This document shows, piece after piece, positions 20,727 through 49,810 of a DNA stretch of 64,000 nt. The DNA comes from Escherichia coli (GTDB lineage: Bacteria; Pseudomonadota; Gammaproteobacteria; Enterobacterales; Enterobacteriaceae), in NCBI RefSeq assembly GCF_016026235.1, contig NZ_CP065613.1; one strand, given 5' to 3'. Made by a program: the position numbers and the translations under genes. The notes under the pieces were generated by a model, which saw nothing but the letters and a program-made list of their open reading frames with translations, was not told the origin of the DNA and searched no databases. The number at the start of each line of letters is the position of its first letter. The stretch's first letter is position 1.

Positions 20727-21719
20727 ATGCGACATAGCGTACTTTTTGCGACAGCGTTTGCCACGCTTATCTCTACACAAACTTTTGCTGCCGATCTGCT
20801 GGGCAAAGGCATTACTGTTAATCCAGTTCAAAGCACCATCACCGAAGAAACCTTCCAGACACTGCTGGTCAGTCGTGCGCTGGAGAAATTAGGTTATACC
20901 GTCAATAAACCCAGCGAAGTGGATTACAACGTTGGCTACACCTCGCTTGCTTCCGGCGATGCAACCTTCACCGCCGTGAACTGGACGCCACTGCATGACA
21001 ACATGTACGAAGCTGCCGGTGGCGATAAGAAATTTTATCGTGAAGGGGTATTTGTTAACGGCGCGGCACAGGGTTACCTGATCGATAAGAAAACCGCCGA
21101 CCAGTACAAAATCACCAACATCGCACAACTAAAAGATCCGAAGATCGCCAAACTGTTCGATACCAACGGCGACGGCAAAGCGGATTTGACTGGCTGTAAC
21201 CCTGGCTGGGGCTGCGAAGGTGCGATCAACCACCAGCTTGCCGCGTATGAACTGACCAATACCGTGACGCATAATCAGGGGAACTACGCAGCGATGATGG
21301 CTGACACCATCAGTCGCTACAAAGAGGGCAAACCGGTGTTTTACTACACCTGGACGCCGTACTGGGTGAGTAATGAGCTGAAGCCAGGGAAAGATGTGGT
21401 CTGGTTGCAGGTGCCGTTCTCTGCACTGCCGGGCGATAAAAATGCCGATACCAAACTGCCGAATGGCGCGAATTACGGCTTCCCGGTCAGCACCATGCAT
21501 ATCGTTGCCAATAAAGCCTGGGCCGAGAAAAACCCGGCAGCAGCGAAACTGTTTGCCATTATGCAGTTGCCAGTGGCAGATATTAACGCCCAGAACGCCA
21601 TTATGCATGACGGCAAAGCCTCAGAAGGCGATATTCAGGGCCACGTTGATGGCTGGATCAAAGCCCACCAGCAGCAGTTCGATGGCTGGGTGAATGAGGC
21701 GCTGGCAGCGCAGAAGTAA
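20727..21719 (+). CDS. proX: Glycine betaine/proline ABC transporter, periplasmic binding protein
   Basis: 330-aa ORF from [21 protein letters not shown] (signal peptide); tracked ORF begins upstream at 20679. Confidence 0.9.
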
Positions 21720-21830
21720 TTTTTATTCGGGCGGATAAGGCGTTTTCGCCGCATCCGCCGCTCTGTACACAATGCCTGATGCGACGCTGGCGCGTCTTAT
21801 CATGCCTACAAACCACACCGCACATTTCAA
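21720..21830. repeat. REP/BIME element downstream of proX
   Basis: gcggataaggcg...cgccgcatccgcc and gcctgatgcgacgctggcgcgtcttatcatgcctac palindromic units. Confidence 0.8.
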
Positions 21831-21896
21831 CTGATCTTACCCAGCAATAGTGGACACGCGGCTAAGTGAGTAAACTCTCAGTCAGAGGTGACTCAC

Positions 21897-22196
21897 ATGA
21901 CAAAAACAGTATCAACCAGTAAAAAACCCCGTAAACAGCATTCGCCTGAATTTCGCAGTGAAGCCCTGAAGCTTGCTGAACGCATCGGTGTTACTGCCGC
22001 AGCCCGTGAACTCAGCCTGTATGAATCACAGCTCTACAACTGGCGCAGTAAACAGCAAAATCAGCAGACGTCTTCTGAACGTGAACTGGAGATGTCTACC
22101 GAGATTGCACGTCTCAAACGCCAGCTGGCAGAACGGGATGAAGAGCTGGCTATCCTCCAAAAGGCCGCGACATACTTCGCGAAGCGCCTGAAATGA
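21897..22196 (+). CDS. insE: IS3 OrfA (InsE), HTH DNA-binding transposase N-terminal part
   Basis: 99-aa [32 protein letters not shown]... Confidence 0.9.
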
Positions 22197-23059
22197 AGTA
22201 TGTCTTTATTGAAAAACATCAGGCTGAGTTCAGCATCAAAGCAATGTGCCGCGTGCTCCGGGTGGCCCGCAGCGGCTGGTATACGTGGTGTCAGCGGCGG
22301 ACAAGGATAAGCACGCGTCAGCAGTTCCGCCAACACTGCGACAGCGTTGTCCTCGCGGCTTTTACCCGGTCAAAACAGCGTTACGGTGCCCCACGCCTGA
22401 CGGATGAACTGCGTGCTCAGGGTTACCCCTTTAACGTAAAAACCGTGGCGGCAAGCCTGCGCCGTCAGGGACTGAGGGCAAAGGCCTCCCGGAAGTTCAG
22501 CCCGGTCAGCTACCGCGCACACGGCCTGCCTGTGTCAGAAAATCTGTTGGAGCAGGATTTTTACGCCAGTGGCCCGAACCAGAAGTGGGCAGGAGACATC
22601 ACGTACTTACGTACAGATGAAGGCTGGCTGTATCTGGCAGTGGTCATTGACCTGTGGTCACGTGCCGTTATTGGCTGGTCAATGTCGCCACGCATGACGG
22701 CGCAACTGGCCTGCGATGCCCTGCAGATGGCGCTGTGGCGGCGTAAGAGGCCCCGGAACGTTATCGTTCACACGGACCGTGGAGGCCAGTACTGTTCAGC
22801 AGATTATCAGGCGCAACTGAAGCGGCATAATCTGCGTGGAAGTATGAGCGCAAAAGGTTGCTGCTACGATAATGCCTGCGTGGAAAGCTTCTTTCATTCG
22901 CTGAAAGTGGAATGTATCCATGGAGAACACTTTATCAGCTGGGAAATAATGCGGGCAACGGTGTTTAATTATATCGAATGTGATTACAATCGGTGGCGGC
23001 GGCACAGTTGGTGTGGCGGCCTCAGTCCGGAACAATTTGAAAACCAGAACCTCGCTTAG
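22193..23059 (+). CDS. insF: IS3 OrfB (InsF), DDE transposase catalytic domain
   Basis: 288-aa ORF in the -1 frame relative to OrfA, overlapping it by 4 bp, as expected for a programmed -1 frameshift OrfAB fusion. Confidence 0.9.
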
Positions 23060-23171
23060 GCCTGTGTCCATATTACGTGGGTAGGATCACAACAAGCTAT
23101 CTTTCGCCCCCATTCATAAACATCCGCTATTATTGATTTCCAGCTTAATCATCACCTGATAAACAAAAATA

Positions 23172-24356
23172 ATGACTAAACCCACTCATGAGCTTAGCCC
23201 GGCGCTGATCGTGCTGATGTCGATCGCCACCGGTCTGGCGGTCGCCAGCAACTATTACGCCCAACCGCTGCTCGACACTATTGCGCGTAACTTTTCCCTC
23301 TCCGCCAGTTCGGCGGGCTTTATTGTTACCGCCGCGCAGTTGGGCTATGCCGCAGGTCTACTGTTTCTTGTTCCCCTCGGTGATATGTTTGAACGCCGCC
23401 GCCTGATTGTCTCGATGACCTTACTGGCAGCGGGCGGTATGTTAATCACTGCCAGCAGTCAGTCACTGGCGATGATGATCCTCGGTACGGCATTAACCGG
23501 TTTATTCTCAGTCGTGGCACAAATTCTGGTTCCGCTGGCAGCGACGCTGGCTTCACCGGATAAACGCGGCAAAGTGGTTGGCACCATTATGAGCGGTCTG
23601 CTGTTGGGGATATTGCTGGCACGAACCGTTGCCGGGTTACTGGCAAACCTCGGCGGCTGGCGCACCGTCTTTTGGGTTGCCTCGGTGTTAATGGCTCTGA
23701 TGGCGCTAGCATTATGGCGTGGTCTGCCACAAATGAAATCAGAAACCCACCTCAACTACCCACAGTTGTTGGGTTCCGTTTTCAGCATGTTTATCAACGA
23801 TAAGATCCTGCGCACCCGCGCATTGCTGGGCTGCCTGACTTTTGCCAACTTCAGCATTCTCTGGACCTCGATGGCCTTTTTGCTTGCCGCTCCACCTTTT
23901 AACTACAGCGATGGCGTAATTGGTCTGTTTGGACTTGCGGGAGCTGCCGGAGCGTTGGGCGCTCGTCCGGCGGGCGGTTTTGCCGACAAGGGCAAATCGC
24001 ACCACACCACAACATTCGGTCTGCTTCTGCTGTTACTTTCATGGCTGGCAATCTGGTTTGGTCACACTTCCGTACTGGCGTTGATTATCGGCATTCTGGT
24101 GCTGGACCTCACCGTACAGGGCGTGCATATCACTAACCAGACGGTAATTTATCGAATACATCCTGATGCGCGTAATCGCCTGACCGCAGGTTACATGACC
24201 AGCTACTTTATTGGCGGTGCCGCCGGTTCGCTAATTTCAGCCTCAGCCTGGCAACATGGCGGTTGGGCTGGCGTTTGTCTGGCTGGCGCGACGATTGCCC
24301 TGGTTAACTTACTGGTCTGGTGGCGAGGTTTTCATCGTCAGGAATCCGCAAATTAA
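23172..24356 (+). CDS. ygaY: MFS-family transporter (uninterrupted)
   Basis: 394-aa ORF with about 12 predicted hydrophobic segments; sits where K-12 carries the split ygaX/ygaY pseudogene, as I recall. Confidence 0.75.
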   Translation: MTKPTHELSPALIVLMSIATGLAVASNYYAQPLLDTIARNFSLSASSAGFIVTAAQLGYAAGLLFLVPLGDMFERRRLIVSMTLLAAGGMLITASSQSLAMMILGTALTGLFSVVAQILVPLAATLASPDKRGKVVGTIMSGLLLGILLARTVAGLLANLGGWRTVFWVASVLMALMALALWRGLPQMKSETHLNYPQLLGSVFSMFINDKILRTRALLGCLTFANFSILWTSMAFLLAAPPFNYSDGVIGLFGLAGAAGALGARPAGGFADKGKSHHTTTFGLLLLLLSWLAIWFGHTSVLALIIGILVLDLTVQGVHITNQTVIYRIHPDARNRLTAGYMTSYFIGGAAGSLISASAWQHGGWAGVCLAGATIALVNLLVWWRGFHRQESAN

Positions 24357-32465: not shown

Positions 32466-32542
32466 TGGTGCATCCGGGAGGATTCGAACCTCCGACCGCT
32501 CGGTTCGTAGCCGAGTACTCTATCCAGCTGAGCTACGGATGC
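32466..32542 (-). tRNA. tRNA-Arg (anticodon ACG)
   Basis: Reverse complement GCATCCGTAGCTCAGCTGGATAGAGTACTCGGCTACGAACCGAGCGGTCGGAGGTTCGAATCCTCCCGGATGCACCA. Confidence 0.95.
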
Positions 32543-32740
32543 ATCGGGAAAATTTATTTTACTGCTGATATTGATATCGCTACTAAAGCCATATCAAGTA
32601 AGAGATGGTGCATCCGAGAGGATTACTCGCCTTGCGGCTCGCCCTTCGGGCCGTTGCTGGCGCAACGTTATCCTCCCTGGTGCCTGCGGTTAATTCCGCT
32701 ACCTCTTCGATATCTTCATTGCTGAAGATTTCGGAGAATA

Positions 32741-32817
32741 TGGTGCATCCGGGAGGATTCGAACCTCCGACCGCTCGGTTCGTAGCCGAGTACTCTATCC
32801 AGCTGAGCTACGGATGC
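32741..32817 (-). tRNA. tRNA-Arg (anticodon ACG)
   Basis: Identical 77-nt tRNA-Arg sequence. Confidence 0.95.
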
Positions 32818-33016
32818 ATCGGGAAACTTACTTTACTGCAGATTTTTTGATACCGCTACTAAAGCCGTATCAAGTAAGAGATGGTGCATCCGGGAGGATT
32901 ACTCGCCTTGCGGCTCGCCCTTCGGGCCGTTGCTAAAGCAACGTTATCCTCCCTAGTGCCTACGGTTAGTACCGCCACCTCTTCCATACCTTCATCGCTG
33001 AAAGTTACGGAGAATA

Positions 33017-33093
33017 TGGTGCATCCGGGAGGATTCGAACCTCCGACCGCTCGGTTCGTAGCCGAGTACTCTATCCAGCTGAGCTACGGATGC
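33017..33093 (-). tRNA. tRNA-Arg (anticodon ACG)
   Basis: Identical 77-nt tRNA-Arg sequence. Confidence 0.95.
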
Positions 33094-33096
33094 AAA

Positions 33097-33189
33097 TGGC
33101 GGTGAGGCGGGGATTCGAACCCCGGATGCAGCTTTTGACCGCATACTCCCTTAGCAGGGGAGCGCCTTCAGCCTCTCGGCCACCTCACC
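33097..33189 (-). tRNA. serV: tRNA-Ser (anticodon GCU)
   Basis: Reverse complement GGTGAGGTGGCCGAGAGGCTGAAGGCGCTCCCCTGCTAAGGGAGTATGCGGTCAAAAGCTGCATCCGGGGTTCGAATCCCCGCCTCACCGCCA with long variable arm. Confidence 0.95.
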
Positions 33190-33504
33190 ACACGCCTCTT
33201 ACGAGTGCTTCGAAGAACTTGTTTATCGCTCATCGTCGCTGCGTGGCGCACATATTACTTTCTGAGACTTATAAGTCAAACAATTTTTCCCACACTTTTA
33301 TCGTTTGCACACTTCACGCTCAATTAGTCTGTAAAAACGTCAAAAAGAGTGTTTTATCAACAGAAAAACGGAGGTCTGACAGATAGCAGTAATGTAAAAA
33401 AATGGAGACTTAAGTTGAATGAACGGGAGTAAAGCGAAAAGACTATAGAGTGAAGGAGAAATTTTGAGGGTGCGTCTCACCGATAAAGATGAGACGCGGA
33501 AAGA

Positions 33505-49590: not shown

Positions 49591-49810
49591 GTGGGCTACT
49601 GTGCCTAAAATGTCGGATGCGACGCTGGCGCGTCTTATCCGACCTACGGGGAGCGCATGTGTTGGTCACATAATGCGTTCATGTCACATACAGCTACTGT
49701 GCCCAAAATGTCGGATGCGACGCTGGCGCGTCTTATCCGACCTACGGGGACGCATGTGTAGGCCGGATAAGGCGTTTATGCCGCATCCGGCAATAATGGT
49801 GTTCAGATGC
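49591..49810. repeat. Tandem ~98-bp direct repeat with REP palindromes between convergent norW and hypF
   Basis: ctactgtgcc(t/c)aaaatgtcggatgcgacgctggcgcgtcttatccgacctacgggga occurs twice (near 49596 and 49693), followed by gccggataaggcgtttatgccgcatccggc. Confidence 0.8.

Follow-up and report, generated by a model that had tools for sequence, protein, structure and literature searches.

A complete copy of the insertion sequence IS3 occupies the spacer between proX and ygaY in the Escherichia coli window described here (the window being the whole 64,000-nucleotide stretch analyzed). The account we favor, with a probability of about 0.93 for the reading as a whole, is that IS3 transposed once into this spacer in a common ancestor of the window strain and E. 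coli FDAARGOS_943. Three lines of comparison bear on this reading: the structure of the element itself, the sequence of the unoccupied site in other genomes, and the distribution of the occupied site among complete E. coli genomes.

The proX-ygaY locus

The genes and the repeat that border the insertion are as follows (window coordinates; + denotes the strand as presented).

20727..21719, +, proX, glycine betaine/proline ABC transporter binding protein (open reading frame; annotation of the sister genome)
21729..21806, +, REP/BIME unit (Rfam naRNA4; 73.5 bits, gathering threshold 59.5)
21832..23089, +, IS3, complete, 1258 bp, starting TGATCTTACC and ending GGTAGGATCA
23172..24356, +, ygaY, MFS transporter of 394 aa, intact (open reading frame; MFS annotation in FDAARGOS_943)

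A gap of 112 bp separates the end of the proX stop codon (21719) from IS3, and one of 82 bp separates IS3 from the ygaY ATG (23172), both distances being exactly those given in the earlier note. The REP/BIME unit, which is found in IS-free genomes too, stops 25 bp short of the insertion point. IS3 and ygaY are oriented alike, both on the + strand. Although ygaY is a pseudogene by K-12 annotation, it is intact in the window and in most E. coli. When compared with NCBIfam, its protein gave only sub-threshold matches to MFS families, none of which reached a curated cutoff, and a literature search on ygaY function returned nothing useful.

The length of the proX-ygaY spacer is polymorphic across E. 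coli independently of IS3. In one other E. coli genome it is approximately 100 bp longer through an extra REP/BIME unit, and in further genomes it differs by approximately 260 bp.

Identity and coding state of the element

The internal features of the element are listed below.

21832..21870, +, left terminal inverted repeat (IRL), starting 5'-TG and pairing with IRR
21897-22196, +, orfA, 99 aa from its ATG, with an HTH_Tnp_1 domain
22159..22163, +, A-AAA-G slippery site, predicted -1 programmed frameshift giving OrfAB
22193-23059, +, orfB, 288 aa, in the -1 frame relative to orfA, with the rve DDE core D135, D195, E231, K238
22940, +, C to T change giving OrfB R250W, private, differing from both K-12 and FDAARGOS_943
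23051..23089, +, right terminal inverted repeat (IRR), ending CA-3' and pairing with IRL

Rechecking left the coordinates and length of the full 1258-bp IS3 with terminal inverted repeats exactly as first described. The repeats are imperfect, with 39 nt per arm and 72% complementarity, and lie at the exact ends of the element. The 99 codons of orfA are counted from an ATG, the mechanical list of open reading frames having begun this frame at an upstream GTG. The slippery site is contained in a CAAAAG sequence at 22158-22163, in the region where orfA and orfB overlap, and the conceptual -1 fusion, OrfAB, would comprise 387 aa. A perfect 10-nt inverted repeat (22169-22178 / 22195-22204) lies just 3' of the slippery site. 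A pseudoknot has been reported for the frameshift region of IS3; folding of the corresponding RNA here gave a z of -1.0, which is not significant, in a minimum free energy procedure that cannot represent pseudoknots. The OrfAB fusion scored 390.9 bits with the NCBIfam model NF033516 (transpos_IS3; cutoff 160), and the Pfam domains recognized in the IS3 protein were HTH_Tnp_1 (1.4e-08), HTH_21 and rve (2.3e-27). In an alignment with 119 diverse homologues, taken from a search of 1.8 billion proteins, the columns of D135, D195, E231 and K238 were each conserved in 115-118 of the 119.

E. coli K-12 carries five IS3 copies (IS3A-E; insE/insF) with the same 1258-bp length, termini, inverted repeats, orfA/orfB layout and slippery site. 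The window copy is identical to IS3B, IS3C, IS3D and IS3E of MG1655 at 1255 of 1258 bases, the remaining three being the following single-nucleotide differences.

22031, G in the window and A in K-12 IS3, in orfA, synonymous
22940, T in the window and C in K-12 IS3, OrfB R250W
23045, C in the window and A in K-12 IS3, OrfB K285Q

With only three differences in 1258 positions, chance likeness is not an issue, and the orfA protein is identical to K-12 InsE because the sole difference in that gene, at 22031, is synonymous. By every defining feature that can be examined in its sequence, the element is IS3, of the IS3 subgroup of the IS3 family.

Whether its reading frames deserve the term "intact", which had been applied to both, depends on how the word is understood. 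Both frames are open, and the description holds to that extent; OrfB, on the other hand, carries the private R250W change, so that "intact" here denotes an uninterrupted frame rather than proven activity. A 61-mer centered on 22940 had no exact match among 13,672 IS3 places in 5,426 E. coli genomes, and R250W therefore either arose in the window copy after insertion or is a sequencing error. In the alignment of homologues, residue 250 is semi-conserved and falls outside the catalytic triad, the column holding R in 68 of the 119 homologues, K in 13 (81 with R or K) and W in two.

The empty site and the target-site duplication

IS3 is flanked by a direct repeat of four bases, one copy abutting each end of the element.

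21828..21831, left target-site duplication CAAC, abutting the IS3 left end
23090..23093, right target-site duplication CAAC, abutting the IS3 right end

For comparison with unoccupied alleles, the two flanks were joined with one CAAC and searched against 5,426 complete E. coli genomes. The IS-free genomes, among them K-12 and the 99.7%-identical relative EC2641, read TTTCAACAAGC at the target. EC2641 matches the empty-site query at 99.7% over 385 bp, uninterrupted and with an identical junction. When the spacers of EC2641, O157:H7 FRIK2533, UM146 and ATCC 11303 were aligned, each read CACATTTCAACAAGCTATC or CAACAATC with a single CAAC, and the target TTTCAACAA occurs once in O157:H7, UM146, ATCC 11303 and K-12. 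The direct repeat reported at both ends of the element is thus present, and it is single where the element is missing; removal of IS3 and one CAAC, the comparison that had been suggested in advance, restores the IS-free spacer exactly. Since the empty sites hold a single CAAC, the occupied locus has gained exactly 1262 bp, that is, IS3 plus 4 bp. On this match between occupied and empty alleles, IS3 at proX-ygaY is a clean simple insertion, and the view that its flanking duplication marks simple transposition and not a remnant of recombination gains support from the same comparison.

Homologous recombination, a larger rearrangement or an assembly artefact, with the CAAC repeat a coincidence, would be a different origin for the same arrangement. 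Recombination between IS3 copies does occur, as indicated by the lack of a flanking duplication at K-12 IS3C and IS3D and at two further loci (L014 and L016). At proX-ygaY, by contrast, the flank on either side aligns collinearly with the IS-free locus and the gain is exactly 1262 bp, a perfect 4-bp repeat adjoins both canonical termini, and an identical structure is found in the independently assembled sister genome; an origin of this kind is accordingly very improbable.

The duplication itself is 4 bp long, in contrast to the 3 bp found at K-12 IS3B and IS3E. Among other E. coli IS3 copies, the five in which a duplication could be recognized all have one of 3 bp, as listed.

K-12 IS3B, ATC, 3 bp
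K-12 IS3E, GTC, 3 bp
GDSC2239PM, AAC, 3 bp
FT130, GAG, 3 bp
E69, CAC, 3 bp

ISfinder lists a duplication of 3-4 bp for the IS3 group. An IS3-like element in Superficieibacter electus has an unambiguous 4-bp GGTC repeat at its flanks. A scan of species-representative genomes with the IRL sequence located 22 loci, mostly truncated or divergent; the two informative ones had duplications of 3 bp and 4 bp respectively, too small a sample for a frequency. A 3-bp duplication is given for the IS3 subgroup in one published account (PMC10045372). The 4-bp duplication at proX-ygaY is therefore inside the known range for the IS3 subgroup without being its modal value.

An ordinary 3-bp duplication (CAA or AAC) accompanied by one extra C carried in with the element, for example through imprecise cleavage of a circle junction, would leave the same trace. 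Because the target reads CAACAA, a 3-bp duplication plus a stray C at either end yields an identical sequence, and the parses TTT-CAA/C-IS3/CAA-CAAGC and TTTC-AAC/IS3-C/AAC-AAGC both fit. Three base pairs is moreover the rule in the other IS3 copies examined. Such an origin would nevertheless require two events in place of one, and the GGTC repeat in Superficieibacter electus indicates that 4-bp staggered cuts occur in the group. We give it only a small chance and prefer a single 4-bp staggered cut as the simpler account.

Several megablast matches ran 12-26 bp beyond the IS3 right end, as would be expected if the copies had a flank or target preference in common or belonged to a mobile unit longer than IS3. 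The idea was dropped when the flanks of four such loci proved to be unrelated, any partial likeness being due to chance.

Distribution and age of the insertion

A 2258-bp query representing the occupied site was covered in only one of the 5,426 complete E. coli genomes, that of FDAARGOS_943 (NZ_CP065615.1, I6H00_RS24355), in which IS3 lies between proX and the MFS transporter gene at the same site, in the same orientation and with the same duplication as in the window. Positions at this locus in FDAARGOS_943 are converted to window coordinates by adding 17331. Its RefSeq annotation records an "IS3-like element IS3 family transposase" with "programmed frameshift" between proX and the MFS transporter. 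Identity between this genome and the window is 99.86-99.95% across the 64 kb. FDAARGOS_943 has an extra IS1 and small indels relative to the window, from which it appears to be an independent sister assembly or strain and not the same assembly. Over the 2258 bp spanning IS3 the two sequences differ at two bases, FDAARGOS_943 having R at OrfB residue 250 and T at the equivalent of 22725 and the window differing at both. These two differences lie inside IS3, where 0.59 would be expected from the flanks, and do not constitute an excess (Poisson P(>=2) = 0.12).

K-12 MG1655, unlike the window strain, has no insertion sequence between proX and ygaY; the statement in the earlier note that K-12 lacks IS3 at this locus was correct. 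Nor was the same IS3 encountered in reference strains at large, a result that would have made it ancestral: its single other occurrence in 5,426 genomes is in a sister that is 99.9% identical. As occupancy is confined to the window and FDAARGOS_943, the insertion should be older than their split, and the same pattern indicates that it is younger than the divergence from all other sequenced lineages, including EC2641, which has the closest spacer allele. Judged by this distribution, the IS3 insertion is recent, lineage-specific and not ancestral.

A competing history would make the insertion ancestral in E. coli and have almost every other lineage lose it by precise excision, an event of which elements flanked by short duplications are in principle capable. 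With the insertion in one of 5,426 genomes, it would call for thousands of independent precise excisions. It is further opposed by EC2641, which shares the unusual spacer allele (99.7%, where most genomes are at approximately 94%) and in which the site is clean, with one CAAC. Such a history is extremely improbable, and a single recent transposition is retained as the explanation of the distribution.

Other features of the window

Several further observations were made along the window. In the csrA to tRNA-Ser spacer (33405-33418) FDAARGOS_943 has an IS1A insertion and the window has none, so that at least one other IS event separates the two strains. At the hycD/hycC junction (62143-62218, minus strand) the window has intact open reading frames for hycC (608 aa) and hycD (307 aa); FDAARGOS_943 is unaligned over approximately 75 bp there and carries a partial hycC by annotation, so that its genome has either suffered a deletion or been misassembled at this point. 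In the hypF-norW spacer (49596-49786) the window is approximately 97 bp longer than FDAARGOS_943, and the overlapping alignments obtained there indicate a difference in repeat number.

At 7398-7654, between the open reading frames corresponding to gabT and gabP, there are three REP/BIME units in tandem (Rfam naRNA4, 67-72 bits each). A tRNA cluster at 32466-33189 (minus strand) holds three tRNA-Arg(ACG) genes and one tRNA-Ser(GCT) gene. K-12 has four Arg tRNA genes in this cluster (argQZYV), and the tRNA-Arg copy number appears to vary between the window and K-12.

Outward transcription and ygaY

Two promoter-like motif pairs are found near the right end of the element, both reading outward.

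22964..22990, +, outward promoter-like pair TTTAAT - 15 bp - TACAAT (motif match; described in PMC12095673)
23008..23038, +, outward promoter boxes TTGGTG / CAATTT (motif match; attributed to Charlier et al. 1982)

IS3 is described in the literature as a mobile promoter with an outward-directed P3R (Charlier 1982, as cited in PMC8860574 and PMC12095673); PMC12095673 describes TTTAAT/TACAAT at the IS3 right end and cites TTGGTG/CAATTT. Both of these published -35/-10-like pairs are intact in the window copy and lie on the ygaY strand. The arrangement recalls the activation of argE by IS3 (Charlier, Piette & Glansdorff 1982; P3R), in which the right end faces a like-oriented downstream gene, as it does at ygaY, and the IS3-argE system and the window IS3 have the TTGGTG/CAATTT and TTTAAT/TACAAT motifs in common. 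The two cases differ in that activation of argE was shown by experiment, whereas that of ygaY is hypothetical.

Other observations speak against such an effect. In one study, the wild-type 150-bp IS3 right end is said to have been chosen for its lack of detectable promoter activity, and the last 50 bp of that end to lower outward transcription, probably via a pause site (PMC12095673). Judging from the legend to a bioRxiv figure, the pause site is estimated to involve bases 123 and 125 of this end, equivalent to approximately 23062 and 23064 in the window; the K285Q difference (23045) does not coincide with these bases. Neither the junction of IRR and flank nor the 82-bp spacer gave a strong promoter in a generic consensus scan, which returned no match at the two published outward motif pairs either. 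Given a wild-type right end that is reported to have no detectable promoter activity and a probable pause site within it, the regulatory effect on ygaY may be nil.

The evidence on ygaY also bears on whether the insertion was adaptive, that is, whether IS3 serves as a mobile promoter to turn on or increase ygaY expression. The shared orientation of the two, the intact state of ygaY, the preservation of both published motif pairs and the P3R activity ascribed to IS3 (Charlier 1982, via PMC8860574 and PMC12095673) would all accord with an adaptive origin. Against it stand the wild-type right end, reported to have no detectable promoter activity and a repressing pause site (PMC12095673), and the consensus scan, which was without a promoter across the junction; the 82-bp spacer may, in addition, still hold the native ygaY promoter. 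Carriage by a single lineage moreover gives no sign of recurrent selection. We consider an adaptive insertion unlikely. It is likewise doubtful, and rather improbable, that IS3 rewires ygaY, by its right-end outward promoter or by read-through from the transposase promoter, so as to produce a selectable transport or efflux phenotype. Orientation and the literature make some effect of IS3 on ygaY plausible, at what we would regard as low odds.

Proposed course of the insertion

In IS3-family elements, transposition is catalyzed by OrfAB, the product of a -1 frameshift. The family moves by copy-out/paste-in transposition via figure-eight and circle intermediates (summarized in PMC3219604). Under the single-transposition reading, a resident IS3 copy would have moved by this route, with OrfAB made by -1 frameshifting at A-AAA-G, and would have entered the spacer 25 bp beyond the REP/BIME unit in the recent common ancestor with FDAARGOS_943. 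Staggered cleavage of the target followed by repair would have duplicated CAAC. The element would since have stayed put, one private missense change (OrfB R250W) being acquired in the window strain, and its right end, with the published outward promoter-like motifs, now faces ygaY at a distance of 82 bp. The history of the insertion follows from the sequence comparisons themselves, and the chemistry of transposition is well established for the family.

Significance

The presence of IS3 at proX-ygaY is already known in kind, and the site is annotated in one public genome. The only departures from known IS3 biology are the minority length of the duplication and the private missense change. If ygaY is indeed driven by an outward promoter of IS3, the locus would represent a naturally occurring allele in which an uncharacterized transporter is overexpressed or differently regulated; such an allele might be mildly useful in assigning a function to ygaY, while the understanding of IS3 and of gene regulation would be unchanged. 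The insertion provides a textbook case of a recent simple IS3 transposition with a verifiable empty site, and its junction is a clean, rare marker (one of 5,426 complete genomes) that is usable for recognizing the lineage and for strain typing.
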